This document shows positions 12,749-46,222 of a stretch of 64,000 nucleotides of DNA, piece by piece. The position numbers and the translations under genes are program-made. Origin of the DNA: a phage; the sequence record PZ386967.1. One strand, written 5' to 3'. Position 1 is the first letter of the stretch. Every line of letters starts with the position of its first letter. The notes under the pieces were generated by a model, which was given only the letters and a program-made list of their open reading frames with translations, was not told the DNA's origin and searched no databases.

Positions 12749-12794
12749 GGGGATTCGTTATATGATGTGCCAAACTTAACCGGAGATAACGTGT

Positions 12795-12995
12795 ATGAGC
12801 CTGAAAGAAGATTCTGTAAACACCACAGTCGCCAACTCCACTTTCCGTGAGTGGCACGACGTATTGTGCAAAGTCGCGAAAAGCCAGGGCGGTTCAGCCG
12901 CCGACGCCGACGCCTGGCGTGATGATTACGAAGCAGGCAAGACCCCTCGCCAGTCTTGGGAAGATGAATGGGGTTGGGAAGAACAAGAAGGATAA
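12795..12995 (+). CDS. Hypothetical small acidic protein (66 aa)
   Basis: ORF with RBS GGAGA 8 nt upstream. Confidence 0.4.
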   Translation: MSLKEDSVNTTVANSTFREWHDVLCKVAKSQGGSAADADAWRDDYEAGKTPRQSWEDEWGWEEQEG

Positions 12996-14040: not shown

Positions 14041-14089
14041 TCATTCCATAAGCAGCACAACATTGACTCTGAAATGAAGGAAATATATC

Positions 14090-17932: not shown

Positions 17933-18679
17933 ATGGCATCTCTCCAGGATCTACGCAAGCTGAATGACTTCGAAAACCGCCATTACACATTCCAGCAGTA
18001 CGAACTTCCTTACAAGGAACTGGAGTGTGTGACGACGGAAAACGGTCGTCATTATGTATCGCCGACTGGCGTCAAGCTGACATCCGTCACGACTATGCTG
18101 GGGCGTACTGGTGATCATGAATGGCTTGAGGCTTGGAGGAAGAAGCTAGGTGCAGAGGCCGCCGACCTTGAGACCATGCGTTGCGCTGACCGAGGGGAGA
18201 AGCTGCACCTTGCATGCGAACTGTATTTGAAGAACCGCCCAATGAAAGAAGTGTTGGAAGCGGCTGGCGAATACATGTTCATGTTCAAGCAGCTGTTCCC
18301 CTATCTGAACAAGATGACAAAGATCTATGCTCAGGAGATCCCATTATACAGCGAGGTGCTTGGTCTTGCAGGTCGAGTGGACCTTATTGGGATTTATGAG
18401 GGTAAACCTGCTATCATCGACTTCAAGACATCGAACATTATGAAGACGCGGGGAATGATCGAGGACTACAGTATCCAGCTGTGCTTATATTCGGTCATGT
18501 TCCAGCAGATGTTCGGTGTCAAGATCACCCGCCTCATCAATGTGATCGCCAACGAGTCTTCCCCTCTACCAACCGTCATTGAGTTCAACCGTGATGACAT
18601 CCTGACAAAGATGTTTGAGCGTGTTCGTCTGTACCATCGCATGGATAAAGAACAGAACGGAGTCTGGCCAGATCACTAA
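17933..18679 (+). CDS. Putative PD-(D/E)XK-family nuclease
   Basis: GRVDLIGIYEGKPAIIDFKTS resembles the D...E-x-K core of RecB/Cas4-like nucleases; between uvsY and uvsW. Confidence 0.4.
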   Translation: MASLQDLRKLNDFENRHYTFQQYELPYKELECVTTENGRHYVSPTGVKLTSVTTMLGRTGDHEWLEAWRKKLGAEAADLETMRCADRGEKLHLACELYLKNRPMKEVLEAAGEYMFMFKQLFPYLNKMTKIYAQEIPLYSEVLGLAGRVDLIGIYEGKPAIIDFKTSNIMKTRGMIEDYSIQLCLYSVMFQQMFGVKITRLINVIANESSPLPTVIEFNRDDILTKMFERVRLYHRMDKEQNGVWPDH

Positions 18680-18707
18680 ATACCCCATAATTCTTGGGAG
18701 ATTTTGT

Positions 18708-20216
18708 ATGGCAGACATCCAGATTGTTAAGGTTAACGAAGTCCGCATGCGTTGCATCGCAGATCTTTCTATCAGGGAAGAACTGAATGACTACTTCAAA
18801 TTCGAAGACCCGAACTTCGTTCCCAACCCCTTCTCTAAATGGGACGGGGTTGTTCGCTTGTTCACCAAGTCATCCGGCCTGATTGATATCGGCCTACTGT
18901 TTGAGGTGTTCAAGTTCTGCAAGAACAACAACTACACCATTGAACTGGATCCGGCTCTGAAGTACATTCAGGACATCCCAGACCAAGAAATCCATGACTT
19001 CATCAACAGTCTGCATCCAAAGATCCGCACCGAAAATCACGAATATATCGATGCCGAGACTCGTGACTACCAGTACGACACCATCGCCAAGGCTATGCGT
19101 CAAACCAGATGCGTCTGTGAACTGGCTACGAGTGCCGGTAAGTCCTTTATTCTGTATGTCATGGCGCGGTACTACAGGCAGCGCAGAGAAGCTCTCGAAA
19201 GTCCTCTGAAGACGCTTATCGTGGTTCCGTCAATTCACCTGGTCACTCAGCTGTACGACAACTTTGAAGAGTACGCACACGGCAGTGATTGGAAGCCCGT
19301 TGTCAACACTCAATTGATCTTTGAGGGCGCGACAAAGGAAATCAGCAAACCAATCGTCATCAGTACATGGCAGGGTATTCAAGACCAGCCGAAGGAATGG
19401 TTCCACCAGTTCGGTGATATCGTGGTGGATGAAGTGCACACCTCCAAGTCTGAGAAACTGTCTTACATCCTAAACAACTGCATCTATGCCGACCAGCGCC
19501 TGGGGGTTACAGGTACGCTGGCGAATACCAAAGTTGCCGGGCTTCAGGTGGTGGCTCACTTCGGGGCGTACCATAAGATCATCACGGCTCGCGATCTTAT
19601 CAATCTCGGGTACGCCACTGACATCAAAGTGAAGATGATTCAGCTGAAGCACACTCCGGCGGATGCTGTTGGTCTAGACGGGGATTATTCCAAGGAAATA
19701 GAATACCTTATCACACACCAGTCCCGCAACGAACTGATCGCCAAGATGGCACTGAATCTGAAAGGAAACGTGGCCATCATGTTCGAACGTATTGATGGTC
19801 ACATGATGGTCGTGTATGATATGCTGAGCGCAGTCAAGCCCAACGTGTTTGTCATCAACGGGGAAGTGAAGATCGAAGACCGCCGCCGCATACAGAAAGC
19901 GATGGAGGATGGAGAGGACATCACCCTGTTGGCATCATACGGGACAATGCAGCAGGGAGTGTCGATCAAGAAGCTACACCACCTTGTACTGGCACACCCG
20001 AGCAAGTCATATATCCGCGTCATACAGACATTGGGTCGTCTGATGCGTCAGCACTCCTCTAAGGACGTCGCGTGGATATGGGACTTAGTGGATGATGCAT
20101 CGTACAACGCCAGCACGAACCACGCTCTTAGGCACTCTCACGAGCGTTACAAGTTTTACCTGGCAGAGCGCCACCCTGTGGAATTCATGAAGGTGGCGCT
20201 GGGTAATCACGATTAA
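18708..20216 (+). CDS. uvsW: UvsW-like SF2 helicase
   Basis: ATSAGKS, IVVDEVH, GVSIKKLHHLVLAHPSKSYIRVIQTLGRLMR and WIWDLVDDA match T4 UvsW; RBS GGGAG. Confidence 0.85.
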   Translation: MADIQIVKVNEVRMRCIADLSIREELNDYFKFEDPNFVPNPFSKWDGVVRLFTKSSGLIDIGLLFEVFKFCKNNNYTIELDPALKYIQDIPDQEIHDFINSLHPKIRTENHEYIDAETRDYQYDTIAKAMRQTRCVCELATSAGKSFILYVMARYYRQRREALESPLKTLIVVPSIHLVTQLYDNFEEYAHGSDWKPVVNTQLIFEGATKEISKPIVISTWQGIQDQPKEWFHQFGDIVVDEVHTSKSEKLSYILNNCIYADQRLGVTGTLANTKVAGLQVVAHFGAYHKIITARDLINLGYATDIKVKMIQLKHTPADAVGLDGDYSKEIEYLITHQSRNELIAKMALNLKGNVAIMFERIDGHMMVVYDMLSAVKPNVFVINGEVKIEDRRRIQKAMEDGEDITLLASYGTMQQGVSIKKLHHLVLAHPSKSYIRVIQTLGRLMRQHSSKDVAWIWDLVDDASYNASTNHALRHSHERYKFYLAERHPVEFMKVALGNHD

Positions 20217-28772: not shown

Positions 28773-28780
28773 GAGAACAC

Positions 28781-29653
28781 ATGACAACTCGCACTGGCAT
28801 CAAACTCACTCCTGAAGTCCTGAAGTCACATATCGCTGAGGTGATTTACGAAGACCGCGAAGTCGGCGGTCACCGGGCTATCACTTGTCATTTCAAGATG
28901 GATAACGGCTTCGTCGTTCACGGCACCAAGCCCAGCACATCCATAGACCCGGCCAACTTCGATGAAGCCCTGGGCAAAGAGATTTCCTACAATAACACCT
29001 TCGACCAGCTGTGGCAGCTGGAGGCGTACCGGGCGCTTGTTGAACAAGATCTGTTGGCCAAAGCCACGGAAACGGCAGAGATCCGGATCGATCAATACGC
29101 TGTTGAACGTAGCGCCCTCTGTCCGGCCTATCACCTCGGCTTCAATGTGATGATTCAGGAAGTGATGTTCAGAGCGGAAAATGGCGAGCGCTTCTTGGCG
29201 TCTTTCATTTGTGGGCCGGATGACATGGAACTTGTTGTTGAATCTCACAACGCCAAATCTCGTAAGGCTGTTAGTGATTTCCTGCGCGCCAACTCCAAAC
29301 TCGATCTCACTTATTCGCCATTGGTTCTGCGCATCGCCAAGATTTGTCATGAAGCCAACCGCGCATACTGCAAGTCTATTGGTGACGACTCTCAACTGCC
29401 TTGGGAACAATCTCCGGCCTGGCAGCGTGAGAGCGCTTGCAAAGGTGTTATCTTCCATCTCACTGGTGATCGTAAGCCCAGCGAATCGCATGAGAGATGG
29501 ATGGCGGAGAAGGAGTCTGAGGGATGGGTATATGGCCCAGTCAAAGACCCTCAGACCAAGCAACACCCTTGCATAGTTCCGTATGGAGAACTCCCGGTAC
29601 AACAACGCTCCAAAGATTATATTTTCAAATCCATTGTAGACTCCTTTAAATAA
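28781..29653 (+). CDS. Hypothetical protein with Gp49-like N-terminal domain and C-terminal RyR-like domain
   Basis: N-terminal AITCHFKMDNGFVVHGTKPSTSIDPANFDEALGKEISYNNTFDQLWQLEAYRA and C-terminal ICHEANRAYC...PWEQSPAWQRESACKGV pattern recalled as phage Gp49-like and RyR domains; from memory only. Confidence 0.4.
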   Translation: MTTRTGIKLTPEVLKSHIAEVIYEDREVGGHRAITCHFKMDNGFVVHGTKPSTSIDPANFDEALGKEISYNNTFDQLWQLEAYRALVEQDLLAKATETAEIRIDQYAVERSALCPAYHLGFNVMIQEVMFRAENGERFLASFICGPDDMELVVESHNAKSRKAVSDFLRANSKLDLTYSPLVLRIAKICHEANRAYCKSIGDDSQLPWEQSPAWQRESACKGVIFHLTGDRKPSESHERWMAEKESEGWVYGPVKDPQTKQHPCIVPYGELPVQQRSKDYIFKSIVDSFK

Positions 29654-29687
29654 GCTCTGAATAATATTTCAACCTGTCAATAATATA

Positions 29688-29720
29688 ATGCCCGGTTATA
29701 TTCAATCGGGCATTTTTATT
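29688..29720 (+). terminator. Terminator hairpin within promoter-like region
   Basis: AATGCCCG-(12 nt)-CGGGCATT followed by TTTTATT; flanked by TGTCAATAATATAATG and TGTCGTAATATAATAG boxes. Confidence 0.5.
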
Positions 29721-29804
29721 ATATTAATTGGCATCAATACCGCCTGTCGTAATATAATAGTCCCATGTTAAAATAGTTAGGAAATATAACTCACGAGAGC
29801 CTGA

Positions 29805-29981
29805 TGACCGACAACAAATTAAAACGTGTCGGACTTGATTGTCTTGACAATTCATTCCGCCCCAGTGATGTTCTGGTCGCCCAAATGGAAAACAACCGGG
29901 ATTTCATTGAAACTATGCTGGAGAACGCCGACGCGAACTCCAAACACTCCAAAGCCCAAAAAGGTCAAAACGATGATTGAA
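29805..29981 (+). CDS. Small protein (58 aa), coupled to the downstream vWA gene
   Basis: ATG 29805 to TGA 29979-29981, overlapping the vWA ATG (ATGATTGA); replaces the Pro/Thr-rich N-terminal extension in track ORF 29826. Confidence 0.35.
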
Positions 29982-32609: not shown

Positions 32610-32660
32610 ATTGAATTCATAGAGCGGGGCGTTCCTGTTCATTGAAAGAAGGTATACATT

Positions 32661-32885
32661 ATGTCTGCTATATCATGTGTTGTTGATCTCACCCCATTTT
32701 GCCTGAACAATATTGCTAACCCTAAATTGGTCTTGTTTAAGGATCCCTCTAATTTCTGCTGGCTGGCAAGTTGTGATACCAACAACGGGCGTCGTGCTGT
32801 TTGGGAGTTTCCCGCAACTGATGAAGGCAGAATTTCTGCTATAAGAAAATTAGAACTAGAAAATTCAAGCCGAGAAATTAAATAG
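32661..32885 (+). CDS. Hypothetical Cys-containing small protein (74 aa)
   Basis: ORF flanked by near-identical cassette copies; RBS AAGAAGG. Confidence 0.4.
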   Translation: MSAISCVVDLTPFCLNNIANPKLVLFKDPSNFCWLASCDTNNGRRAVWEFPATDEGRISAIRKLELENSSREIK

Positions 32886-32902
32886 GCATAACTTTTATTA
32901 AA

Positions 32903-32968
32903 TCCCCAACAAACGTTGGGGATTTTTAACTTTTAGGGGTTTACTTCCTTTAAGGAATGTCCTATTAT
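32903..32968 (+). promoter_or_regulatory. Terminator plus T4-type early promoter cassette (copy B)
   Basis: Near-identical to copy A (1-bp indel); -35 TTTACT 32940-32945, -10 TATTAT 32963-32968. Confidence 0.55.
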
Positions 32969-33019
32969 TCAATAACTGGCGAACGATGGGTTCACCGGGT
33001 TGAAAGGTAAGATTATATC

Positions 33020-33259
33020 ATGAAGAACAAAATGGTCGAAACTTCAGTAGAGATTGATCGCAATTGGGGATTGCTCCGCGCTAAAGGGTTCCGTCGTGTG
33101 TATGCGACCAAAGAAGTCTACGCACAGCGCCGTGACGTTATCATCAGCAAGAAAGGCAAAGAGTGGGTTGCTGAAGAAGTTGATGTCGAGACAGGCATCG
33201 TAGGAAAGGTAAAGGCCAAGGCCGTGATCCTCTTCGCTCTTCTGAAGCACATCAGTTAA
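33020..33259 (+). CDS. Hypothetical protein (79 aa)
   Basis: ORF after cassette copy B with RBS AAAGG. Confidence 0.4.
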   Translation: MKNKMVETSVEIDRNWGLLRAKGFRRVYATKEVYAQRRDVIISKKGKEWVAEEVDVETGIVGKVKAKAVILFALLKHIS

Positions 33260-33318
33260 TTCTATAACTTTGGGCGGGGTATGATTACCCCGTCTATTTG
33301 AAATGCAGGAACTATACC

Positions 33319-33825
33319 ATGACCGATCAACAAATTCAAGATTTATTTTACCTCGTCCATGATAAGTCCCACATCATGCGCCCCGGTACTGTTTCCCCTG
33401 CCGTCCGTGATCTGGTGCAAGAATTGCGCGAACCACAGACGACCACACTTTATCGCGGGTTGCCTAAAGAGGACGTTGCGCGTTTAGAGATGATGTTTGA
33501 ACGAGGCGACATGTTCCAGACATGGGATTCTTGCCTTAGCTTCAGTGAACTGAAGCATGTGGCCAAAAAATTTTCTAAATCGTACGGAACCCAAGCTGTT
33601 GCCCGCATTTGTTACAAACATCGAAACAGACTCCCGGAGGGGCTTAATGTCTATGGTTCTCTAGAAAAATTTGTGAACAAAGGCGATGAATCAGAAATGG
33701 ATATGCTGGACTTGGCGTCCATGGAGAAAGAATGGATATTCTGCCAGCCTCGCGTCATACCAGTTTCAAGAAAAATGGCAACAGACGGCACGATGGTTTT
33801 TACCGTATCACTTGTTACCCTATAA
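33319..33825 (+). CDS. Hypothetical protein (168 aa)
   Basis: ATG in conserved GGAACTATACCATG context; flanked by identical 31-bp hairpin-leader repeats. Confidence 0.5.
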   Translation: MTDQQIQDLFYLVHDKSHIMRPGTVSPAVRDLVQELREPQTTTLYRGLPKEDVARLEMMFERGDMFQTWDSCLSFSELKHVAKKFSKSYGTQAVARICYKHRNRLPEGLNVYGSLEKFVNKGDESEMDMLDLASMEKEWIFCQPRVIPVSRKMATDGTMVFTVSLVTL

Positions 33826-33877
33826 ACCCACGGCGGGGTATGATTACCCCGTCTATTTGAAACCAAGAGACTATATC

Positions 33878-37235: not shown

Positions 37236-37898
37236 ATGGAAAAACTTTATTCTATTATCGTCGGTCCTGATCCTGACGGATTATTCTTCGCCTCGTTGTC
37301 TTATATTGCCCACGCCCGTATCGGTAGCTATTACGCATATTGCACACGTGGCCACGACGGTTCCAATATCCTCCATTATAGCCGCCTGAACGATTTCCTG
37401 GCACTTCAACCAGAAGATGTTGTGCTGGCGCGTCGCGTGTTCATCGACTTCAACGCGATGCACAACAACGAAATCGACGCTCGCTACCATGCCATGCGTT
37501 CTATGGACGGGGGAGATTGCATTTATCGTATCGACCATTTTAGTGAGTTTACCGAATGTATTGATTGGTTTATCTCTGATAAAGTGATGGGTGAAAGAAT
37601 CGTCACAACTCCGTGGGCACATGCGGAACAACTTCGTGTGTCTACCGATGCGTACAAAGAAGTCGACAATCTGTGCAACAAGTTCCGCATCTCGGTGACC
37701 TGTAATCAAGACCTGGGCGAAGAGATACAATGGACAGCTGAGTCTCCTCATTTCAGTGGCCTGGTGATGACGGCCGAAACCCGTTCCCGTGCTGTTGTCC
37801 AGTTAGTACTCTGGGCGTTCTACCAGCGCACCCCGTTCTCGTACATGGGGCAGAAAGAGATTGATGAACTCCTGAAGTCTCACGCGGTGGAGGTGTAA
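37236..37898 (+). CDS. Hypothetical protein (220 aa)
   Basis: ATG in conserved GAGACTATATCATG context after a hairpin. Confidence 0.5.
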   Translation: MEKLYSIIVGPDPDGLFFASLSYIAHARIGSYYAYCTRGHDGSNILHYSRLNDFLALQPEDVVLARRVFIDFNAMHNNEIDARYHAMRSMDGGDCIYRIDHFSEFTECIDWFISDKVMGERIVTTPWAHAEQLRVSTDAYKEVDNLCNKFRISVTCNQDLGEEIQWTAESPHFSGLVMTAETRSRAVVQLVLWAFYQRTPFSYMGQKEIDELLKSHAVEV

Positions 37899-37899
37899 T

Positions 37900-38178
37900 A
37901 TGGCTGGCGTATGGTGTGATGTCTTGCTGGTTCGTTACAGCGTAAATGGGTGTGTCCAAGTGCGTTCCGCCTTCTATCCAGTACCGTTCTCTTCCGGTGG
38001 CCTGACGGTTCAGCGAGTTCTCGATATTGAGGCAGAACTGAACAAAAAGTCTTTTGGTGTACAAGTCCTGGGGTACGATCTTCTGAATGAAATGATGGTT
38101 GAAGAAGACAAAGTTGAGACTGTCATTGGTCGTCAGGAGATGGAATCGTTAATCTCCAAATCGGAGGTCAAATCATGA
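37900..38178 (+). CDS. Hypothetical protein (92 aa)
   Basis: Tightly packed ORF immediately after the preceding stop. Confidence 0.35.
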   Translation: MAGVWCDVLLVRYSVNGCVQVRSAFYPVPFSSGGLTVQRVLDIEAELNKKSFGVQVLGYDLLNEMMVEEDKVETVIGRQEMESLISKSEVKS

Positions 38179-38426
38179 GTCCCAACATGGCAATAATCTG
38201 GGTTGGTGAATCGTCAATGCGTTGTCCTCACAAGACGATCACCTTCTTGGACGATGAGCGCCTGGCCGAACAACGGGTTGAAGTCCGCGAAATGCAGGTT
38301 TCTTCAAAGGTGGTGAACGTTCCTGTGACTAATATTCAGACTTTTAAGCCTTGCGTCAGAGTGATTTGTGAACGCTGTGGATGTTATGGCACGATGACGA
38401 CTGAAGACGTGGCGAAAGGCTATTAA
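38175..38426 (+). CDS. Hypothetical Cys-rich small protein (83 aa)
   Basis: Start overlaps the preceding stop; C-terminal CERCGCYG motif. Confidence 0.35.
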   Translation: MSPNMAIIWVGESSMRCPHKTITFLDDERLAEQRVEVREMQVSSKVVNVPVTNIQTFKPCVRVICERCGCYGTMTTEDVAKGY

Positions 38427-38516
38427 TTCCGCTTTATTCAATAAAATTTGTTAGTTAAACTGTAGTCCTCTTGTAGTGAACATGAAAGTAAACATTAACC
38501 CAACGGAGAAATCCAG

Positions 38517-38795
38517 ATGAATCGTACTGAATTTGTTGCCCACATTGCTTCGACCCAGAACATCACCAAAGGCGAAGCGGAGAAAGTAGTGGCATCCTTT
38601 ATCAACGGTGTTAAGACTGCAGTTGCTGCAGGCGCATCTGTACAGCTGGTCGGCTTCGGTGCGTTCGAAGTGAAACACCAAGAAGCGCGTGAAGGCCGCA
38701 ACCCTCTGGACGGCCAGACCATTCAGATCGCGGCGAAAAACGTTGTGAAATTCAAAGTGGGCGAAGGTCTGAAGAACGCTGCCAACGGCAAGTAA
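38517..38795 (+). CDS. hup: HU/IHF-family DNA-binding protein
   Basis: Canonical HU sequence: MNRTEFV...GFGAFEVKHQEAREGRNP..GQTIQIAAKNVVKFKVGEGLK. Confidence 0.85.
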   Translation: MNRTEFVAHIASTQNITKGEAEKVVASFINGVKTAVAAGASVQLVGFGAFEVKHQEAREGRNPLDGQTIQIAAKNVVKFKVGEGLKNAANGK

Positions 38796-38846
38796 TTCTA
38801 TCTGACGCGCGGCCAGGCTCTGCAATACAGGGCATGGCAAAGAGAA

Positions 38847-38876
38847 AGCCGGAGCATTGTACTCCGGCTTTTTCGT
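38847..38876 (+). terminator. Rho-independent terminator after HU gene
   Basis: AGCCGGAG-CATTGTA-CTCCGGCT followed by TTTTCG. Confidence 0.7.
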
Positions 38877-38923
38877 TCTTGGGGATCGGGTAAACTATAG
38901 GCGAATCCCATAGGAGGAAGAAA

Positions 38924-40642
38924 GTGACAGCATTCAACCAATATACCAAGGCGCTTGACGGCGTCGGACCAGTCAGCATAGACCGCATCAAGTCTCTTGC
39001 CACTGAGTTCTTCCCGTATGACACCGCCAACCCCGGCCAGATGGAATGCATCGTTGAAGCCATTGATGCCCTTGTGAATAAGAAATTCAAACACGTGATC
39101 ATCGAGGCTCCGACTGGTGTAGGTAAATCCCTCATCGGCACTACCATCCATAATGTGCTTCGCCATTTGGTTCTTGAGCACAACCCGTATGGTCAGTTCC
39201 GCACGTCTATCACGACGCCGACCAAAGGTTTACAGGATCAGTATGCAGCAGAGAAAGCCGTGGCGATAGACATCCTGAAGGGCAAGAAGAACTACCGTTG
39301 CCACATCAGTCCCGACCTATACTACAACGCCATTCAGTGCCGTATGGCATGCCGTGATGGCCACTGTAGTAAGAATCGTTGCCCATATGTTCAGGCGCGT
39401 CGACAGTGGACCGACGTCTCCTCCCTGCGCTGCACCAACGCCGCCATGATGGTGGAGATGTGTACGACGATTTGTATGAAGCCGGAAAACCGTGCCGATA
39501 TGCTGATCCTTGACGAGTGTCATAAGATGCCCTCTACGCTCCTAGAGCATACTATCATGGAATACAACATAAAGGCTGTGGAAGGGTTGCTTACGATCCC
39601 CGAGGGAGTGCCTATCGTGGAGACCATCAAGGATATCATCATCCGCACAGAGAACTATGAATTGGGCAAGCTGTATTCCCTGTCTGGTGAGATGCATGCG
39701 ATATTTGATGAACTACACGGCAAGGTTGAAGCCCTGTTGGAAACTCTTGAAGAACTGGTAGAGGATGAGCGCCTGACTGAAGCCCAGGTGATGAAGCTGT
39801 CTGATATTATTGATAATCTTCACAACCTCAGTGACTACTGCGGTATCATGGGGCAGACCAACGCCAGCACTTTCATCGTACAGGAGAAGGACAAGGGTAT
39901 GATTCAGTTCAAGCCTGTCATCGCCTCTGATGTATCCCAGTTCGGTCTGTTCCGCAAGGGTGACTACCACGTTCACATGTCGGCGACCATCTGCGGGATT
40001 GACTCGTACGCCCGGTCACTGGGTATCCGCGAGGGTGAGTACCACAAGATACAGATCGGCAACCCTATCCCGATTGAGAACCGGAAAGTCAACTACATGC
40101 CCATCATGAAGATGACAGCGAACATGGGTGACTACGAGATGAAGAAGCTGGCTGAATACGTGGATGAAATTATCGCGTTCCACCCTGGGCAGTCTGGCAT
40201 CATTCACACAGTCAGTTATGACCGCGCCCTGGCTCTACAAAAGTTCAGTAAGTACCGGAATATGATTCACGTTCCTCGTACTCGTAAGGCTCTGATGGAC
40301 ATCATGGAAAACGCGTTCAGGACGAAGACGCCTTGTGTCATCGCCAGTCCGGCCATGGAAGAGGGGTATGACTTCAAAGGCGATTATAGTCGATTTCAGA
40401 TCTTGATCAAGGTGCCATACGATTACCTTGGTGATCCTCTGGTGGCCCACGTCAACAGTGTGGACCCATCGGCGTACTTCAGGATGGCGGTACTGCGTAT
40501 CGTTCAGATGTGTGGGCGTTCGGTCAGGGGTGTGAATGACTGGGCTGCGACGTACATCCTTGATTCTTCTTTTGAATCACTGATGATGCGCAACCCAGAG
40601 TTCTTCCCCGCTTGGTTCACTGATGCCGTGTTTGAGGTTTAG
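38924..40642 (+). CDS. DinG/Rad3(XPD)-family SF2 helicase with Fe-S cluster cysteines
   Basis: Q-motif PGQ, Walker A APTGVGKS, four Cys between motifs (CHISPDLYYNAIQCRMACRDGHCSKNRC), DEAH box LDECH. Confidence 0.75.
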   Translation: MTAFNQYTKALDGVGPVSIDRIKSLATEFFPYDTANPGQMECIVEAIDALVNKKFKHVIIEAPTGVGKSLIGTTIHNVLRHLVLEHNPYGQFRTSITTPTKGLQDQYAAEKAVAIDILKGKKNYRCHISPDLYYNAIQCRMACRDGHCSKNRCPYVQARRQWTDVSSLRCTNAAMMVEMCTTICMKPENRADMLILDECHKMPSTLLEHTIMEYNIKAVEGLLTIPEGVPIVETIKDIIIRTENYELGKLYSLSGEMHAIFDELHGKVEALLETLEELVEDERLTEAQVMKLSDIIDNLHNLSDYCGIMGQTNASTFIVQEKDKGMIQFKPVIASDVSQFGLFRKGDYHVHMSATICGIDSYARSLGIREGEYHKIQIGNPIPIENRKVNYMPIMKMTANMGDYEMKKLAEYVDEIIAFHPGQSGIIHTVSYDRALALQKFSKYRNMIHVPRTRKALMDIMENAFRTKTPCVIASPAMEEGYDFKGDYSRFQILIKVPYDYLGDPLVAHVNSVDPSAYFRMAVLRIVQMCGRSVRGVNDWAATYILDSSFESLMMRNPEFFPAWFTDAVFEV

Positions 40643-41406
40643 TAACCCGCAACGAAGGACAGATGGCACTTGACATTCGGTTCCAACGACGTCACAGAAA
40701 CCGTCATATTGTCCGTATCTTGGCTGAAGTCAATGGTGGCGAGAGGTTTGGTCTGAATATGGTTGTAAACACTGTAGATCAGATCCTCGCCACGATACCC
40801 TACCTTCCCGTCGGTGTCTTGCCAATGACCCAGTGTCTCATCGTAGACATGCACTCTGAACTCGATCATATGGAAGAGTGCCTTGGGGATGTCCTTGAGT
40901 ACGCTGGTGCCAACCACGGGAATCTCTATGCTGGAATCATTGGAGTTCCCTTCATATACCGAAGCCCATGCAAAGGTGGGATCTCCCCCAGCAACAGGGG
41001 TTCGCTTCCAGTATTGGAATTCTGGGTTGCCTGAAGCGTTCTTCTGAAGTAGAATGACCTCACCACCTTTGAAGTTCGAAGTATCGATGTCGCCTCGCTG
41101 AAGTTCATCTGCTGGAGATCCAATAAATTTCCAGCCTTCGCGATCCAGTAAAGACTTATAATAGTCGGTGAACACGTTGCTGTCTTCTGCATCGTTGATG
41201 GCATCTTTGAGACCTTGGCCTGTCACCATCTCGTTGAGCTTCAACCACATGTTCTTGACAGCAGACGCTGCTGCGACTTGTCCAGCAGTCCCACCTGCAG
41301 CATAATCATAGATGATATCTTCTGACTTGATAGCATCATAGATAGAGAGGAGCAATTGCTCAATCTGCGGGGCGGTGAGACTGAAACGATATGCGCGGGG
41401 TGTCAT
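40639..41406 (-). CDS. Hypothetical late protein (255 aa), possibly structural
   Basis: Minus-strand ORF from internal ATG 41406 with RBS AAGAGGA; canonical T4 late promoter TATAAATA about 36 nt upstream on the same strand. Confidence 0.45.
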   Translation of the reverse strand: MTPRAYRFSLTAPQIEQLLLSIYDAIKSEDIIYDYAAGGTAGQVAAASAVKNMWLKLNEMVTGQGLKDAINDAEDSNVFTDYYKSLLDREGWKFIGSPADELQRGDIDTSNFKGGEVILLQKNASGNPEFQYWKRTPVAGGDPTFAWASVYEGNSNDSSIEIPVVGTSVLKDIPKALFHMIEFRVHVYDETLGHWQDTDGKVGYRGEDLIYSVYNHIQTKPLATIDFSQDTDNMTVSVTSLEPNVKCHLSFVAGY

Positions 41407-41441
41407 AGTTTCATTCCTCTTTCTATAAAACCAGTTTGGGA

Positions 41442-41449
41442 TATTTATA
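41442..41449 (-). promoter_or_regulatory. T4-type late promoter (TATAAATA) on minus strand
   Basis: Exact TATAAATA (plus-strand TATTTATA) upstream of the minus-strand gene. Confidence 0.5.
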
Positions 41450-41451
41450 TC

Positions 41452-41979
41452 ATGATAGAAATTTATTCTGACGGGGGTTCTAACCCGAAGACCAACCAGG
41501 CCGCAGGCTGGGCATTTGTCATCAGGCCAATAACGGGTATGCAATGGAAGGTGTTCTTCGGCCATCTACCTCCCCCGTCCACTAACAATATCGCCGAGTT
41601 GTTGGGTGTGACCAACGCATTGAAGCTACTGTGGGCATTCTCAGGAAAGGGTGAGCGCAGAATACCAAAGGCAACAATTTGGTCTGACAGCCAATATGCC
41701 ATCAAGAGTGTCACCGAATGGCGAGCGAAGTGGGAGTATCAGGGTTTCCCAGAAAAGAACGTTGAACTCATCAAAGATCTGTTCAGAATCTATGATCTCG
41801 TTTGTTCAATTTGTGATGTTGAACTAAAATGGGTTAAGGGTCATGCGGGGCACGAAGGCAACGAACTTGCCGATGACTGGGCCACAGCAGCCAAAAACGA
41901 CAGCAACTTCCTGATTGAGAATGACAAGATCTCAGTGAAGAAGGTTGTTGGATCTTTTGATGAATTTATCGGTATCTGA
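41452..41979 (+). CDS. rnhA: Ribonuclease HI (bacterial-type RNase H)
   Basis: IYSDGGS...GWAFV, TNNIAEL, IWSDSQY, WVKGHAGHEGNELADDWA correspond to RNase HI catalytic motifs. Confidence 0.8.
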   Translation: MIEIYSDGGSNPKTNQAAGWAFVIRPITGMQWKVFFGHLPPPSTNNIAELLGVTNALKLLWAFSGKGERRIPKATIWSDSQYAIKSVTEWRAKWEYQGFPEKNVELIKDLFRIYDLVCSICDVELKWVKGHAGHEGNELADDWATAAKNDSNFLIENDKISVKKVVGSFDEFIGI

Positions 41980-41990
41980 GGGCTTTCATA

Positions 41991-42782
41991 ATGGGAATGA
42001 ACTTCGTGGACAGAGGGGAGAATGTCGTCAAATATTTCACGGACGAAGACAACGAGCGTGTCATTAGTATCCTTCGTGATTGGATCCCCGCCCGCAAGAA
42101 AGCACTTGCTGAGGGCACCAGGCTTCCAAAGATCCCCAACTATGTTGCTCTGCAGGTCCAGCGCATCATCACCAAGATGAGTACCCGCTACAACTATCGC
42201 GACTATCCCTTCCGTGAAGACATGGTCTCTGAAGCAATAGTCAACATCCTGCGCTACCTCCACACCTTTGACGTCGAACACATTGGAAAGAAAGGGAAGA
42301 TCAACTTCTTCTCTTGGGTGACCATGTGCGCTGATCGATCATTCGCTCGTAAACTGAATATCGAAGAAGAACACACGTACATCAAATTGCGCTCATTTGA
42401 AGAGGCGGGTGGGTTCGCAGGCCTGGCAGACGATCCCGACTTCCAACAAGAGATCTTTGTTGACGCGACAGGGATTGGTATGGACTTCCGTGAGCGTATC
42501 GGTAACTTTGAGAACAAAAAGGACGCTCAAAGGCAGAAGGAGCGAGAGAAGGTGGAGGCGGCTCGTCTCGCAGAATCGAATAAAAAGATTGCGAAAGGCA
42601 TACTTCAATACATGGCGCAGGCTAAGAATACGGTAACAGCGCAGGCCGAAGACAATTCAGATCAGGACTTTGGCAAAACCCAATTCAATCTGGAAGATGA
42701 TATCTGTGCGATGGAACCAGATTGGGAAGCCCTCAAACAAAGATTAGAAGAACGGGAGAAAAAGAATAATGGCGATTGCTAA
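41991..42782 (+). CDS. gp55: Late sigma factor (gp55-like) with acidic/coiled C-terminal extension
   Basis: ISILRDWIPARKKALAEG...MVSEAIVNILRYLHTFDVEH...FFSWVTMCADRSFARKL parallels T4 gp55 LQAIIDWKTEL...[20 protein letters not shown]...AYITQACFNAFVQRIKK. Confidence 0.7.
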   Translation: MGMNFVDRGENVVKYFTDEDNERVISILRDWIPARKKALAEGTRLPKIPNYVALQVQRIITKMSTRYNYRDYPFREDMVSEAIVNILRYLHTFDVEHIGKKGKINFFSWVTMCADRSFARKLNIEEEHTYIKLRSFEEAGGFAGLADDPDFQQEIFVDATGIGMDFRERIGNFENKKDAQRQKEREKVEAARLAESNKKIAKGILQYMAQAKNTVTAQAEDNSDQDFGKTQFNLEDDICAMEPDWEALKQRLEEREKKNNGDC

Positions 42783-43884
42783 AATCGGCGATCTGCATAT
42801 CGGGAGCCGTAATGGTTCCCGATACGTTCGCGACTTCATCAAGAACTACCTCATCAATTATTTCATCCCTGAACTTGTCGCCTCCGACATCCATGAGGTC
42901 TGGCAGTTTGGTGACACATTTGACGTCCGCAAATTCATGTACGGGCGTGACAAGGACTGGTTGAAAGATGAGCTGACTCCGGCGCTGAAAGCTGCTGGGA
43001 TCAAGTGGAATGGTATTGTTGGCAACCACGACATCACCCTGGAAGAGTCTAACCGCATCAACTGGCCATCCTACCTGAACGAACTCGACCCAGATGTATA
43101 CTGCTATTATAGCGAACCGACCGAAGTGATGATCGAGGGTGTCAAGACTCTGCTCCTACCGTGGATCAACAAGGAGAACTATGATGCGTCTATTAAGGCG
43201 TTACAAGATACAGACGCCGAGTACTGTTTTGCGCATCTGGAGTTGGCAGGGTTCAAAATGTACCAGTCCTCTACTTGTGATCACGGTCAGATCGACGTTG
43301 CGTTGCTTTCCAAGTTTACCAGGGTCGACACGGGGCATTTCCATACCCGTTCGATGGAAGGTAACATTCAGTATCTTGGGACTCCGTATCACCTGAACTG
43401 GGAAGACTACAAAGATGGCACCAACCGTGGCTTCTATGTGGACGACATGCGCGGCGGTGAGGTATTCATTCCCAACAGCGAGCACCAGACGTTGTTCCGC
43501 TATGTGGAATATGATTACACCAAGTTGTCCTCAGACGATGAGGGTAACTGGATCGACCCGGAATGGTTGAACACAGGCTTGGGTATTGAAGGGCAAATCG
43601 TTAAGGTTATTGTACAGAATCGCGACAATGCTAAGCATTATGAAAAGTTCTGTGATGCAATGAAGCGATGCAAGTGTATTGACTACAACTTCATCGACCG
43701 GACTATTACCGTAGCGGCTGAGAAGGTTGAGGTCACCGAAGAGATGGTGGCAACCGACGCAGTGGAAGTCCTAAAGAAGGATATCCGCGCCGGGAACAAC
43801 ATCCAGCGCCCTGAAAACGTCTGCAAGCTAGCAGAGCACTTCTACAACGCTGCCCAACAACGCCTGAATACACTGGATGCATAA
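42769..43884 (+). CDS. gp47: Recombination endonuclease subunit (gp47-like, Mre11/SbcD family)
   Basis: IGDLHIG, QFGDTFDVRKF, IVGNHD, GHFH and YLGTPYHL match T4 gp47 phosphoesterase motifs. Confidence 0.85.
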   Translation: MAIAKIGDLHIGSRNGSRYVRDFIKNYLINYFIPELVASDIHEVWQFGDTFDVRKFMYGRDKDWLKDELTPALKAAGIKWNGIVGNHDITLEESNRINWPSYLNELDPDVYCYYSEPTEVMIEGVKTLLLPWINKENYDASIKALQDTDAEYCFAHLELAGFKMYQSSTCDHGQIDVALLSKFTRVDTGHFHTRSMEGNIQYLGTPYHLNWEDYKDGTNRGFYVDDMRGGEVFIPNSEHQTLFRYVEYDYTKLSSDDEGNWIDPEWLNTGLGIEGQIVKVIVQNRDNAKHYEKFCDAMKRCKCIDYNFIDRTITVAAEKVEVTEEMVATDAVEVLKKDIRAGNNIQRPENVCKLAEHFYNAAQQRLNTLDA

Positions 43885-46222
43885 CATGACTCAAAGTACA
43901 GATATCCTGGCCAAATTTGGCAATCTTTTGAAGGAAGCTGACACCCCGGTAGAGGTGGAAGTCCCATTTGAAGTGCGTGATAACGTTACGCACAAACTGA
44001 CTTTCCGCAAAGGTCGCGCCAAGAACTTCCGCTCCATCGGCAATCAGTTCATGGAGATTGATTATCAGCGCAACCCAGCCACCCTTGTCACGTCTGATGA
44101 CAACGGCGCGGGTAAATCCACGATGTTGGTATGGCTGCTGTTCTTCGTACTGTACAACACCACGTACAGTAAGAAGGAGAAGAAGGCAGGCCTGGTTAAC
44201 TCACAAAGCCGCAAGGAATGTGTGGGTGAGGTAGAGTTTGCCTGTCGTGGTAGTGAATGGAAAGTTCGCCGGGGTATCAAGCCCGACTTTGTTGAAGTCT
44301 ACCAGATGGTGGACGGTAAGTGGTTGCAGATCGATAACGAAGCAGCCAAGGCCGACATGAACAAGTACATCGTGAACCTCATCGGTGTAGACCAGAAGAT
44401 GTTTGAGAACTCTCTGGTGCTGGGTAAAGAGAAGTTCATTCCGTTTACGGAGATGTACACTGCCGACCGTCGCGCCATGGTGGAGACAATTTGGGACTTG
44501 GGCTTCTTCAGCCTGATGAACGAAGATGTCAAGGCCGCCATCAAAAAGGCAAATACAACTCTGGACTCCATATCTAACGAATGCGCACTGAAGGTTATTG
44601 ACCACACCAACAAGAAGACGCAGCTTCAGCAGATCGAGCAATCCAACGCTCTGATCCAACAGCAGTCGGCCGATATCCTTGTACAGCAACAGGAAGCCCT
44701 GAATTCCCTGGATGCTGACATCGCTTCCCAGAACGAAGAGCGCAGCCGCCTCACTGCGGTTGAGTTCGAAGCCACCCAGGAAATGAAGACGGTAGAAAAT
44801 CGCCTGAATGATGAATCCATGGTGGAGATCGAGGCTATCAAGAAAGACTTTGATGCCAAGATCCAGGCGGTGAAGGATGCCGCTCAGGAAAAGGCCGATG
44901 ATTATGAGCGCATCGAAGTGTCTACTGCGGAGCATGAACTTCAGGTCTTGCGTGACCGTGCCTTTACAGTGGCCGAAAGCAAGAACACCCTGCTCACCGA
45001 GCGCAACACAAACCTGGACGCCCTGAACGCTGCTATTCAGCGCCGCCAGCAGGGTGAGAACTTCCGCATCAAGTTCCAGACCGAAATGGACGGACATCAG
45101 TCGGCCATCAAGCGCTTCCACGACATGGGGACTTGCCCTACCTGTACCCAACTGGTGTCTGATGACACCAAGGCGCGGATTGAGAGTGAGTACAATCCTC
45201 AGATCCAGGAACTACAGTCGAAGTTAGATCAACTAGACAAAGTTACCGCCGATATCAATGTCCTGATCGATGATCACAAGGCTCAGGATGATAAGTTGGT
45301 TGCTGACATTGCTGTGTTGGACACTGAACTGGATGCAATGCGCAAGCAGGCTGACGAAATCGTTGACAACATCAAGCAGCTGCGCCGTGATATTCAAGGT
45401 TTTCATGATGCTGCCACGATTGAGTGTAATTCACTGAACCGTGAATGTCAACAGAAGATCCTTGACATCCGTAAGGCACTGAACGTTCGTTTTGAAGACA
45501 TCACTGCGTCACTACAACAAACTCGAGAGAATGCCGTCAGCGGGATTAAAGCCGTCGATGATAAGATCGCCGAGCTGAAAGCCCGTCGTGCTCCTCTCGT
45601 GGCGTCTATTGCCGATCTGGAGCGTAAACTGGCTGTACAGCCAACACCTACCACCGACCTGGAGAACTCTATCGCTGCGTTGGAAGGTGAACTGGAGTCT
45701 CTGTATGAACTCCGTGAAGATGCAGATGAGGAACTCCAGGACTTACAGCACCTGCTGTTCTTCTTGAAAGATGACCAGACCAAGGCGCGTATCATCGCCC
45801 TGTATCTGCCATTCCTCAATAGCAAGATCAACGAGTATCTTGAAGCCCTCAACATGTTCTTGGATATCGTTGTTGACGATACCTTTGAGATCACCATGAG
45901 CGCAGCAGGCCGCAAGGGGCAGAGTATCTTCTCCCTGTCTACTGGCCAACGCAGTCGTCTGAACCTGGCTGTGACATTAGCTCTGCGCGATGTGGCTAAC
46001 CTCAAGGCATCGGTGCAATGTAACCTGTTTGTCCTGGATGAAATCCTTGAGAACATGAGCGAGCGCGGGGTGCAGGAATCGGTTGAGATGTTGAAGCATA
46101 AGTTCGGCGGGAACAACCTGTTTGTTATTAGCCAGCGCGAACAGGAGTTCCAAGAATACTTCCAACACAACATTCGCTACGGCCTGCGAAACGGCCTGAC
46201 TGAAGTTATCAAGAAGGATTGA
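43877..46222 (+). CDS. gp46: Recombination endonuclease ATPase subunit (gp46-like, Rad50/SbcC family)
   Basis: Walker A DNGAGKST, long coiled-coil with zinc-hook CPTC, signature STGQRSRLNLA, Walker B FVLDEIL. Confidence 0.85.
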   Translation: MHNMTQSTDILAKFGNLLKEADTPVEVEVPFEVRDNVTHKLTFRKGRAKNFRSIGNQFMEIDYQRNPATLVTSDDNGAGKSTMLVWLLFFVLYNTTYSKKEKKAGLVNSQSRKECVGEVEFACRGSEWKVRRGIKPDFVEVYQMVDGKWLQIDNEAAKADMNKYIVNLIGVDQKMFENSLVLGKEKFIPFTEMYTADRRAMVETIWDLGFFSLMNEDVKAAIKKANTTLDSISNECALKVIDHTNKKTQLQQIEQSNALIQQQSADILVQQQEALNSLDADIASQNEERSRLTAVEFEATQEMKTVENRLNDESMVEIEAIKKDFDAKIQAVKDAAQEKADDYERIEVSTAEHELQVLRDRAFTVAESKNTLLTERNTNLDALNAAIQRRQQGENFRIKFQTEMDGHQSAIKRFHDMGTCPTCTQLVSDDTKARIESEYNPQIQELQSKLDQLDKVTADINVLIDDHKAQDDKLVADIAVLDTELDAMRKQADEIVDNIKQLRRDIQGFHDAATIECNSLNRECQQKILDIRKALNVRFEDITASLQQTRENAVSGIKAVDDKIAELKARRAPLVASIADLERKLAVQPTPTTDLENSIAALEGELESLYELREDADEELQDLQHLLFFLKDDQTKARIIALYLPFLNSKINEYLEALNMFLDIVVDDTFEITMSAAGRKGQSIFSLSTGQRSRLNLAVTLALRDVANLKASVQCNLFVLDEILENMSERGVQESVEMLKHKFGGNNLFVISQREQEFQEYFQHNIRYGLRNGLTEVIKKD

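Follow-up and report, generated by a model that had tools for sequence, protein, structure and literature searches.

A phage gene lying within the window, the whole 64,000-nucleotide stretch of DNA that was analysed, was interpreted with moderate confidence as encoding a helicase of a viral XPD/DinG branch with a putative accessory role in replication or recombination, the HU gene upstream of it being separate. The protein was shown or predicted to have two RecA-like motor domains, an Arch-like insertion and, between motifs Ia and II, a compact module of four cysteines. The observation is correct but fairly ordinary, as it concerns a conserved and already annotated phage helicase.

38924..40642, + strand: XPD/DinG-family SF2 helicase, 572 aa, GTG start

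Source genome and locus

The window is collinear with Escherichia phage A221 (Ackermannviridae) and approximately 90–99% identical to it, and at the helicase locus it is 98–99% identical to Ackermannviridae phages. The DNA is from a Vi01-like Ackermannviridae phage. This identity and the collinearity with A221 ruled out T4 as the origin of the window, and the framing given by the sequence-only reading, of a T4 with added genes, was not borne out. Both the HU and the helicase gene are conserved in the Ackermannviridae and are already annotated, the former as 'DNA binding protein' and the latter as 'DNA helicase' or 'ATP-dependent helicase'. The gene order HU, helicase, RNase HI, gp55, gp47/46 is constant across the enterobacterial genera. 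The genes that surround the helicase, and the other SF2 helicase of the window, are as follows.

40639..41406, - strand: convergent neighbour of the helicase, conserved, function not known (phrog_3833)
41452..41979, + strand: cellular-type RNase HI, neighbour of the helicase, start approximate
41991-42782: gp55, next after RNase HI
42769-43884: gp47, next after gp55
43877-46222: gp46, next after gp47
18615..20216, + strand: UvsW orthologue, the other SF2 helicase of the window (T4 UvsW structure 2oca, E 3.5e-75; phrog_16)

The convergent phrog_3833 gene is labelled as a structural protein in some records.

Family assignment and fold

The GTG start of the helicase is kept in four genera and is preceded by a ribosome-binding site, AGGAGG, at 38912-38917. 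The protein matched Pfam Helicase_C_2 (PF13307) with 47 bits, above the gathering cut-off of 25.3, as well as Pfam ResIII and DEAD, and it matched phrog_2488 'DNA helicase' with an E value of 1e-259. The profile of the helicase clade matched E. coli DinG (3e-20), Finegoldia DinG (1.5e-17) and Thermoplasma XPD (4.5e-15). The best NCBIfam matches were DinG, YoaA, dinG_rel and rad3, the scores being below the curated cut-offs for the E. coli DinG equivalog NF008729 (66.3 bits, cut-off 598), for YoaA NF053712, which was the second-best NCBIfam match at 2.4e-15 (56.3 bits, cut-off 680), and for the Rad3/XPD subfamily TIGR00604 (23.2 bits, cut-off 246.95). These cut-offs rule out direct orthology to DinG, YoaA or Rad3.

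Pfam DEAD_2 (PF06733), which models the N-terminal region of XPD and DinG, gave no match to the helicase at E≤0.01 and was carried by only one homologue (P0062) in the precomputed list. The compact cluster module is probably outside the reach of DEAD_2. This is a diagnostic model and not a property that defines the family. Since the DinG, YoaA and Rad3 cut-offs were not reached and DEAD_2 was not matched, the functions of the cellular enzymes are not simply transferable to the phage helicase.

The AlphaFold model of the helicase had a pLDDT of 88.9 and a pTM of 0.87. When this model was searched with Foldseek the top 41 matches were all DinG, XPD, Rad3 or CasDinG, the best being 6fws with an E value of 1.7e-25, and the top of both fold searches consisted of DinG/XPD/Rad3 structures only. 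The protein is a member of the XPD/DinG (Rad3-like, SF2B) family, within a branch that appears to be virus-restricted; the Pfam, clade-profile, NCBIfam and Foldseek results agree with the DinG/Rad3(XPD) type that had been proposed from the letters. The motifs and domains outside the cysteine module were located as follows.

39107..39130, + strand: motif I / Walker A, APTGVGKS, residues 62-69 (alignment; K68 in 258/258 homologues)
39512..39523, + strand: motif II, DECH, residues 197-200, a DEAH variant (alignment)
39536..39928, + strand: Arch-like insertion between motifs II and III, residues ~205-335 (AlphaFold secondary structure; full-length DinG/XPD fold matches)
40313..40618, + strand: Helicase_C_2 region of motor domain 2, residues 464-565 (Pfam; includes motif VI, Q528-G536)

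The GVGKS of Walker A begins at residue 65. Motifs I (APTGVGKS), Ia (TxTxxLQxQY), II (DECH), III (SAT), V (SP..EG.D) and VI (QxxGRxxRG) are invariant or nearly so, and among 258 homologues D197 is kept in 256, E198 in 257, H200 in 256 and R532 in 257. The box that the earlier reading called DEAH, at 197-200, is in fact DECH. Long helices at 255-279 and 286-311 of the predicted model form part of the Arch-like insertion, so that the model places the Arch domain of the family between motifs II and III and gives the predicted protein a four-domain fold.

The four-cysteine module

39290..39400, + strand: compact four-cysteine module, putative [4Fe-4S], residues 123-159 (alignments)

The position expected for an Fe-S cluster, between Walker A and DECH, holds five cysteines at residues 126, 139, 143, 148 and 153, and the module has the pattern NYRC126-x12-C139-x8-C148-x4-C153PYVQAR. 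In a 32-sequence alignment with identities down to 36%, C126, C139, C148 and C153 were invariant and C143 was variable, which confirmed the four-cysteine insert between Walker A and motif II that the sequence-only reading had described; cysteines 170, 180 and 184 were also variable. Cysteine was present in the full-length homologues (n=258) at C126 in 258, at C153 in 255, at C148 in 233 and at C139 in 214. That reading was to fall if homologues did not conserve the cysteines, and at least four cysteines within a segment of ~40 residues were found in 254/258, so that on this point it was not refuted. The usual spacing in the homologues is C-x11/12-C-x8-C-x4/5-C, with CxxC pairs absent. The cysteines are retained in a Rhizobium phage at 30% identity and in a haloarchaeal virus at 27% identity, and an exception is the YerA41 homologue, annotated as Csf4-like, from which the entire cysteine segment is deleted. 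The first and last cysteines are separated by 27 residues, far fewer than in XPD or DinG, and the module aligns with the C199/C205 'CPFFVARR' region of E. coli DinG. By analogy with XPD and DinG, a [4Fe-4S] cluster would be held by C126, C139, C148 and C153.

The HU gene and the intergenic region

38517..38795, + strand: HU/IHF-family DNA-bending protein, 92 aa (Pfam PF00216; phrog_379)
38454..38465, + strand: promoter-like element upstream of HU, GTTAAACTGTAG, putative -10 TAAACT at 38456-38461
38812..38839, + strand: conserved hairpin right after the HU stop codon (predicted fold; compensatory changes between the window and KpS110)
38845..38880, + strand: intrinsic terminator of HU, AAAGCCGGAG-CATTGTA-CTCCGGCTTT followed by a T-run (fold, covariation, Marshall annotation)
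38889..38900, + strand: promoter-like element upstream of the helicase, GGTAAACTATAG, putative -10 TAAACT at 38891-38896

An HU homologue had been noted upstream of the helicase, and its identity was secured by a match to Pfam Bac_DNA_binding of 100.6 bits against a gathering score of 22.4, covering positions 1-90 of 90. The protein carries the RNP motif found on the arm that intercalates into DNA and is 41% identical to E. coli HU-beta. Searches of the PDB gave HU chains at ~1e-19 to 1e-12, an engineered single-chain IHF at 6e-21, native IHF subunits at ~5e-12 and SPO1 TF1 at 4e-11 (1exe, 1wtu). The scores were below all NCBIfam HU/IHF equivalog cut-offs (HU-beta 69.6/157, HU-alpha 67.3/162, IHF-alpha 71.4/111).

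The terminator ascribed to HU proved to be real. Its stem is formed by 38845-38854 and 38862-38871 with a T-run extending to ~38880, the surrounding intergenic region of 128 nt has a fold z of -4.0, and the stem covaries between genera (GCCGGAG / GCCGAGG / GCCGGGG / CCCCGG). A terminator is annotated at the equivalent place in phage Marshall. A scan of 37800-41800 for consensus terminators found none; this result was discounted because the fold and the cross-genus covariation show a real terminator.

The promoter-like element of HU lies inside a block of ~50 nt that is conserved in four genera. A T4 MotA box was considered for CGCTTTA upstream of HU and rejected, the spacing to the -10 being 19 nt and not the ~12 nt of T4 MotA boxes. 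The 12-mer G[GT]TAA[AG]CT[AG]TA precedes both HU and the helicase, with only these two copies in the window and no other copy in the 153-kb A221 genome. This motif was defined post hoc from its two sites, and the chance of a 10-of-12 match in two short intergenic regions is estimated at ~0.2; a Serratia phage has TACAAT at the site of the putative -10 of the helicase. On these grounds the 12-mer was rejected as proof of co-regulation, and it is probably a -10 hexamer and not proof of a regulon. A search of the literature for an Ackermannviridae transcriptome paper found none.

Only in enterobacterial genera, namely Kuttervirus, Agtrevirus, Limestonevirus, Taipeivirus and Miltonvirus, do the HU and helicase genes lie side by side. 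In the examined flanks of the helicase in Vibrio, Aeromonas, Acinetobacter, Delftia, Pseudomonas and Rhizobium phages and in haloarchaeal viruses no annotated HU was found, and no HU match was reported for the helicase-carrying 157-kb Vibrio phage group. HU is a separate monocistronic gene, and its position beside the helicase reflects synteny within one lineage and not a two-part machine.

Distribution of the helicase clade

The helicase clade comprises at least 4,309 sequence clusters at E≤1e-30. It occurs also in Vibrio, Acinetobacter, Delftia and Rhizobium phages and in haloarchaeal viruses, a distribution much wider than that of the HU pairing. Among 185,579 species genomes only 31 clade loci were found, all on MAG contigs, and from these searches the clade appears to be virus-restricted. 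Records of Escherichia phages contained the helicase in 32 cases and Dda in 740; T4-type phages do not have this helicase, as the earlier reading had said of T4.

The order helicase / RNase HI / gp55 / gp47 / gp46 is conserved. The helicase adjoins exonuclease, primase, ligase and polymerase genes in Acinetobacter and Rhizobium phages and a topoisomerase gene in Pseudomonas phage Cygsa01. Neighbours outside the Ackermannviridae vary, so that the context points to DNA metabolism in general terms only.

Proposed role

Enzymes of the XPD/DinG type pass one strand through a pore, translocate 5'->3' and separate the duplex at the cluster domain. If the phage helicase works like XPD and DinG, one DNA strand would thread a pore bounded by motor domain 1 and by the cluster and Arch domains, and ATP hydrolysis would drive translocation in the 5'->3' direction, with the duplex splitting at the cluster domain. 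Its place in a DNA-metabolism block beside RNase HI, gp55 and the gp47/gp46 nuclease is consistent with an accessory replication/recombination helicase, which would clear R-loops, D-loops or protein blocks at forks and would support recombination-dependent replication. A repair or recombination role is plausible.

The annotated helicase genes of A221, the closest complete genome, are only gp41, a UvsW-like gene and the XPD/DinG-type gene, together with the gp59 loader. When T4 Dda was the tblastn query for the window and for the complete A221 sequence, the best E value was 0.9. By analogy, the helicase would most likely take the niche of Dda as an accessory 5'->3' helicase; the grounds for this proposal are limited to the absence of Dda and the expected polarity. 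A literature search on phage XPD/DinG helicases found nothing specific, and no biochemistry for any member of the clade.

Hundreds of Ackermannviridae records read 'DNA helicase' or 'hypothetical protein', and the annotation is here refined to a compact XPD/DinG-type helicase, probably Fe-S. These phages are widely used for therapy and biocontrol, and their replisome differs from that of T4 by an XPD/DinG-type helicase in place of Dda. With its great size, its apparent restriction to viruses and its 27-residue module, the clade would be a convenient minimal model for the Fe-S domains of XPD-type helicases.

Alternative explanations

The nature of the protein itself could be read in other ways. 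The cysteines might bind zinc or form a structural knot, the protein being a generic SF2 translocase with no redox-active cluster, like the DinG relatives that have lost theirs. The unusual shortness of the module would fit this, as would the existence of cluster-less relatives such as the YerA41 homologue, and CasDinG and S. aureus DinG, neither of which is known to carry an Fe-S cluster, are close structural matches. The explanation is nevertheless unlikely, because CxxC knuckles are absent, the cysteines are near-invariant over a very deep clade, and the contexts of the first ([KR]-N-Y-x-C) and last (C-P-Y-x-x-x-R) cysteines match the cluster ligands of DinG, XPD and FANCJ. The fold and the family resemblance to XPD might also suggest a helicase that verifies damage in nucleotide excision repair (NER), as XPD does within TFIIH. 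This is very improbable, as TFIIH-like or UvrABC-like partners are not annotated in the phage, the score of 23 bits compares with a rad3 subfamily cut-off of 247, and the sequence is nearer to bacterial DinG. An XPD/DinG-type helicase with a putative cluster and an accessory role is preferred to both.

Other readings tie this helicase to a partner. HU and the helicase could form a functional module in which HU, by bending or remodelling the DNA of phage or host, loads or directs the helicase and so adds a capacity for repair or nucleoid remodelling. The genes are adjacent and co-oriented in every enterobacterial Ackermannviridae phage checked, the numbers of helicase and HU records agree by host genus (Salmonella 165/168, Klebsiella 44/44, Dickeya 19/19, Serratia 10/10), and the common 12-mer precedes both genes and is found nowhere else in A221. 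Agreeing counts are, however, expected from vertical inheritance in one family, a conserved and covarying terminator separates the genes, the 12-mer is of the post hoc kind described above and resembles a -10 hexamer, and outside the enterobacterial group the flanks examined contain the helicase without an annotated HU. The module is accordingly quite improbable, and the added repair or nucleoid-remodelling function that the sequence-only reading drew from the two genes together is not supported in view of the terminator, the separate promoter-like elements and the limitation of the pairing to one lineage. The helicase might instead be tied to thymidine hypermodification, opening the duplex for 5-HMUDK and aGPT-Pplase or unwinding bulky, charged DNA, a connection that we consider unlikely. 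The pore beside the cluster domain of XPD is a sensor of bulky adducts, which speaks for such a role. Carriers of the helicase include the known hypermodified phages ViI (5-NeOmdU), PhiW-14 (putrescinyl-thymine) and SH-Ab 15599 (dapT) (PMC5889632; PMC13458397). The helicase of PhiW-14 is gp70 and aGPT-Pplase1 is gp72 (Table 3, PMC5889632), and in SH-Ab 15599 and nACB2 the helicase gene is followed, at a distance of ~400 nt, by one homologous to the gene for kinase gp37 of PhiW-14. Against this, the modification genes in the Ackermannviridae proper are not beside the helicase, those of ViI being gp67, gp160, gp226, gp243 and gp247 and the helicase Vi01_106c, a comparison that is approximate as the numbering schemes may differ; the M6/YuA-like and SP10 groups, which also hypermodify their DNA, are not among the carriers (Pseudomonas records 3, Bacillus outside the ten genera listed); and the modification was reconstituted in vitro without any helicase (PMC13458397). 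Modification genes are reported near replication genes generally, and the co-occurrence may reflect a common replication module of related large myoviruses. A helicase is not mentioned in either of the two hypermodification papers (PMC5889632, PMC13458397). A tblastn search with the SH-Ab 15599 kinase found 6 records only and was too insensitive for a co-occurrence table.

ViI has been shown to make 5-hmdU-derived DNA (PMC5889632), and a broader and speculative scenario can be drawn in which, among large phages and archaeal viruses, a virus-specific minimal Fe-S helicase took the place of Dda in several lineages. In ViI, PhiW-14 and SH-Ab 15599 it would have become suited to thymidines that carry bulky, charged adducts, or linked to the post-replicative step that installs these, with a co-regulated HU acting like TF1 on the modified DNA. 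This scenario is improbable as a whole, and the link to hypermodified DNA is possible as a lead only.

Comparison with known systems

The HU homologue has a full-length Bac_DNA_binding domain in common with bacterial HU and IHF, while its equivalog scores are below the cut-offs. SPO1 TF1 is 99 aa in length compared to 92 aa for the phage protein, and SPO1, like ViI, a member of the lineage of the window phage, has 5-hmdU-derived DNA (ViI: PMC5889632).

When the helicase was compared with known enzymes, E. coli DinG (6fwr/6fws) was the best match both by sequence and by Foldseek. The two share the SF2 motifs, a DEAH-type motif II, an SAT motif III, Helicase_C_2 and the C-x4-C-x5-CP[FY]..AR layout of the last cluster ligands, and both are stand-alone enzymes with no fused nuclease domain. 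They differ in that the identity over the structure is only ~16-17%, the phage helicase is ~140 residues shorter, and the first and second cluster cysteines are separated by ~73 residues in DinG and by 12 in the phage protein. The second ligand of the phage helicase is probably C139 and not the variable C143 that aligns with C194 of DinG. Compared with XPD/Rad3 (2vl7, 3crv, 2vsf, 5fmf), the cluster module of the phage helicase is much shorter and the TFIIH context is absent. E. coli YoaA is described as an accessory Fe-S helicase at damaged replication forks (10.1101/2024.06.21.600097); YoaA is a paralogue of DinG that works with Pol III chi, and a chi-like partner was not identified for the phage helicase. 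CasDinG/Csf4 of CRISPR type IV is a close fold match that works with a CRISPR effector complex, whereas the phage helicase has no CRISPR context and has the cysteines. T4 Dda (SF1B) belongs to a different superfamily and has no sequence similarity to the phage protein (best E value 0.9), and its analogy to the phage helicase is a proposed one, of function only.

A phage helicase of the XPD/DinG family

The gene under study and the motifs of its product are as follows.

38912-38917, + strand: ribosome-binding site AGGAGG of the helicase gene (sequence)
38924-40642, + strand: XPD/DinG-family helicase ORF, 572 aa, GTG start (ORF listing)
Helicase residues 62-69: Walker A, APTGVGKS
Helicase residues 197-200: motif II, DECH and not DEAH

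The GTG start and ribosome-binding site are kept in Vi01, KpS110 and a Serratia phage. Pfam assigned Helicase_C_2 to the protein at 47 bits (cut-off 25.3), with further matches to ResIII and DEAD, and the PHROGs match was phrog_2488, 'DNA helicase' (E 1e-259). When the single sequence was compared with the PDB, E. coli DinG was matched at 2e-6 in an alignment that spans the cysteine region (RMACRDGHCSKNRCPYVQARR vs KASCLNRNCYYYRECPFFVARR). The sequence-only reading had called the protein a DinG/XPD-type helicase and proposed profile searches as a check; these were run with a profile of 32 homologues and upheld the assignment, giving DinG at 3e-20, Finegoldia DinG at 1.5e-17 and Thermoplasma XPD at 4.5e-15, followed by Rad3, XPD, CHL1 and FANCJ. 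The highest NCBIfam ranks were DinG, YoaA, dinG_rel and rad3, all far under the curated cut-offs. The AlphaFold2 model (pLDDT 88.9, pTM 0.87) gave the same family, as its best 41 Foldseek matches were all DinG, XPD, Rad3 or CasDinG. An insertion of approximately 130 residues containing two long helices lies between motifs II and III of the model, the place occupied in XPD and DinG by the Arch domain. The helicase is a member of the XPD/DinG family but the orthologue of no named cellular enzyme; the family is already known and hundreds of genomes already carry an annotation for the gene.

The cysteine module

Five cysteines lie between Walker A and motif II (C126, C139, C143, C148 and C153), with C170, C180 and C184 further on. 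In the 32-sequence alignment, which extends down to 36% identity, every sequence has C126, C139, C148 and C153, whereas C143 varies. The insert of four cysteines between Walker A and a DEAH box described in the sequence-only reading is therefore right as to the four invariant residues, with the corrections that five are in position and that the box is DECH. Conservation of the cysteines was confirmed in 258 profile-aligned full-length homologues, where C126 is present in 258/258, C153 in 255/258, C148 in 233/258 and C139 in 214/258; with small shifts allowed, at least four cysteines fall within a segment of approximately 40 residues in 254 of the 258, the commonest spacing being C-x11/12-C-x8-C-x4/5-C. 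The cysteines are retained in proteins from a Rhizobium phage (30% identity) and a haloarchaeal virus (27% identity).

The contexts of the first (K-N-Y-x-C) and last (C-P-Y-x-x-A-R) cysteines resemble the cluster ligands of DinG, XPD and FANCJ. A zinc knuckle would be expected to show CxxC pairs, which are absent from the four-cysteine module. Because the cysteines are conserved, their contexts resemble known ligands and there are no CxxC pairs, the helicase very likely binds a cluster through this module, whose four putative ligands span 27 residues, making it unusually small. The homologue of Yersinia phage YerA41 (481 aa), labelled Csf4/CasDinG-like in its record, is shorter, and the entire four-cysteine segment is deleted, which points to loss of the putative cluster module within the viral clade.

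Distribution of the clade

The gene was found by tblastn in 498 phage records, including all genera of enterobacterial Ackermannviridae, Vibrio phages of approximately 157 kb, Aeromonas phiA8-29, Acinetobacter SH-Ab 15599 and nACB2, Rhizobium and Sinorhizobium phages, YerA41, some jumbo phages, Lak phages, and tailed viruses of haloarchaea, whose records call it a 'Rad3-related DNA helicase'. The gene is also carried by Delftia PhiW-14 and Pseudomonas Cygsa01. An exhaustive profile search returned 4,309 clusters, defined at 50% identity, at E<=1e-30 and 15,012 at E<=1e-3. When 185,579 species genomes were scanned with clade-specific peptide patterns, which address this clade rather than the family at large, only 31 loci were obtained. 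Isolate genomes contributed none of them: every locus is on a metagenome-assembled contig, in most cases one attributed to Nitrososphaeraceae. The clade, with its minimal cluster module, is large and appears to be restricted to viruses. Homologues at approximately 24-34% identity are encoded on some 20 short contigs that were binned with ammonia-oxidising archaea but are probably from uncharacterised thaumarchaeal viruses.

Genome of origin

Across this region, identity is 98-99% with Escherichia phage A221, Enterobacter phage fGh-Ecl02 and the Salmonella phages Marshall and Maynard; with Shigella phage Ag3 and with SKML-39, a Salmonella phage, it is 93-94%. All of these belong to the Ackermannviridae. 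The whole window (49.5% G+C) is collinear with A221 17387-81521 at 90-99% identity, and these matches rule out a T4 origin. The window is from a Vi01-like phage, a lineage sharing T4-type genes of replication and late transcription (gp45/44/62, regA, gp55, gp47/46, gp61, UvsY and RNR). The A221 alignment is broken at 12749-12795, 14086-14419, 28763-29958, 32616-33832 and 38108-38399, probably by variable islands made up of small genes. Other features of the window are listed below.

5017-6816, - strand: HNH-type homing endonuclease, 599 aa, phrog_3339, flanked by the genes for tail sheath and tail tube; G+C is at its minimum for the window here (43% at 4001-6000), and the gene is likely a mobile insertion
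23624-24496: MazG-like nucleotide pyrophosphatase, phrog_2144, within the replication block; a possible role is removal of canonical dTTP or dUTP, the phage lineage being one that makes 5-hmdU-based DNA
49146-52130: 994-aa ORF, phrog_3867, a short segment of which resembles an internal head protein; 51315-51773, in this region, has no A221 alignment

The HU homologue and the intergenic region

38454-38465 and 38889-38900: shared 12-mer upstream of HU and helicase, G[GT]TAAACT[GA]TAG (also given as G[GT]TAA[AG]CT[AG]TA)
38517-38795, + strand: HU homologue ORF, 92 aa
38812-38839: hairpin immediately after the HU stop codon, 5' of the terminator, with compensatory changes between the window and KpS110
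38845-38854/38862-38871: HU terminator stem, followed by a T-run

The HU homologue has a full Bac_DNA_binding domain and is 41% identical to E. coli HU-beta. Its top two PDB matches (6e-21) were engineered single-chain IHF, and bacterial HU chains were matched at ~1e-19 to 1e-12, native IHF subunits at ~5e-12 and SPO1 TF1 at 4e-11; it falls under every equivalog cut-off. The protein may be adapted to modified DNA in the manner of TF1. The gene forms a monocistronic unit: the block upstream of it is strongly conserved and a terminator of its own follows, an arrangement that would fit high expression. A221 encodes, at 120812-121312, a second and longer 'putative histone-like protein' of 166 aa.

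The 128 nt between HU and helicase contain two predicted hairpins (fold z = -4.0 vs shuffles). The terminator stem differs between genera by compensatory substitutions (GCCGGAG, GCCGAGG, GCCGGGG, CCCCGG) and a terminator is annotated at the same position in phage Marshall; a simple consensus terminator scan did not detect it. Neither the window nor the 153-kb A221 genome has the shared 12-mer anywhere but at these two sites, and Vi01 and KpS110 keep it. In the Serratia phage the helicase site reads TACAAT, so that the 12-mer is most simply, and probably, a -10 element belonging to a promoter class not yet described. Since the motif was defined from the two sites themselves, it argues only weakly for co-regulation.

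Gene context

The order HU, terminator, helicase, convergent gene of unknown function, RNase HI, gp55, gp47 and gp46 is conserved in Marshall (Kuttervirus by record), Vi01, A221, KpS110 (Taipeivirus) and Serratia 2050H1 (Miltonvirus), and the same run is in a published table of Vi01-like conserved genes (PMC10892097). In Marshall a GIY-YIG homing endonuclease lies between RNase H and gp55, which are adjacent in the window (41979-41991). Among enterobacterial phages, HU and the helicase occur in the same sets; outside enterobacterial Ackermannviridae, the helicase flanks examined carry no annotated HU. There the helicase is flanked by dUTPase or unknown genes and by RNase H, gp55 and gp47 (Vibrio K444), follows the clamp loader and a MazG-like gene (Aeromonas phiA8-29) or directly follows a DexA-type exonuclease (Acinetobacter SH-Ab 15599 and nACB2), lies amid ligase, primase, exonuclease, dCMP deaminase and DNA polymerase genes (Rhizobium phage), adjoins a topoisomerase (Cygsa01), or lies amid small unknown genes (halovirus). 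The stable context signal is a DNA replication and recombination module, not the HU partner. The HU homologue upstream with its own terminator had been correctly recognised from the sequence, but its joint action with the helicase is not supported, nor is the view that the two genes are an addition to T4; the genome is of the Ackermannviridae. The observation was correct with small corrections and the interpretation is partly supported.

A functional link between the helicase and thymidine hypermodification of the phage DNA was also considered. The helicase is present in ViI, PhiW-14 and SH-Ab 15599, in each of which hypermodified bases derived from 5-hmdU take the place of part of the thymidine (PMC5889632; PMC13458397). 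Hypermodification genes lie within two to three genes of the helicase in PhiW-14, where the helicase is gp70 and aGPT-Pplase1 is gp72, and in SH-Ab 15599 and nACB2, where a homologue of the PhiW-14 kinase gp37 (5-HMUDK) is approximately 400 nt downstream. However, the gene-product numbers of the modification genes of ViI are far from the helicase locus tag, the hypermodifying M6/YuA-like and SP10 phages are not among the helicase carriers, the modification has been reconstituted without any helicase, and modification genes are reportedly near replication genes in general, so that such a link is of low probability.

Comparison with the helicases of T4

A UvsW orthologue adjoins the sliding-clamp gene.

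18615-20216: UvsW orthologue (E 3.5e-75 to PDB 2oca)

A221 also has the gp41 primase-helicase and its gp59 loader. No homologue of T4 Dda was detectable in the window or the whole A221 genome, the best match (E 0.9) being in a PhoH-annotated region. Among Escherichia-phage records 32 carry the XPD/DinG-type helicase vs 740 with Dda; T4-type phages are without it, as the sequence-only reading had stated for T4. The RNase HI neighbouring the helicase is of the cellular type and DinG acts on R-loops and D-loops, so that clearing of RNA-DNA hybrids or recombination intermediates would be a reasonable specific role. XPD and DinG unwind 5'->3', like Dda. The T4 set consists of gp41, UvsW and Dda; in the present phage gp41 and UvsW are accompanied by the XPD/DinG-type enzyme, which in the simplest functional reading would be a non-orthologous replacement for the accessory 5'->3' helicase Dda.
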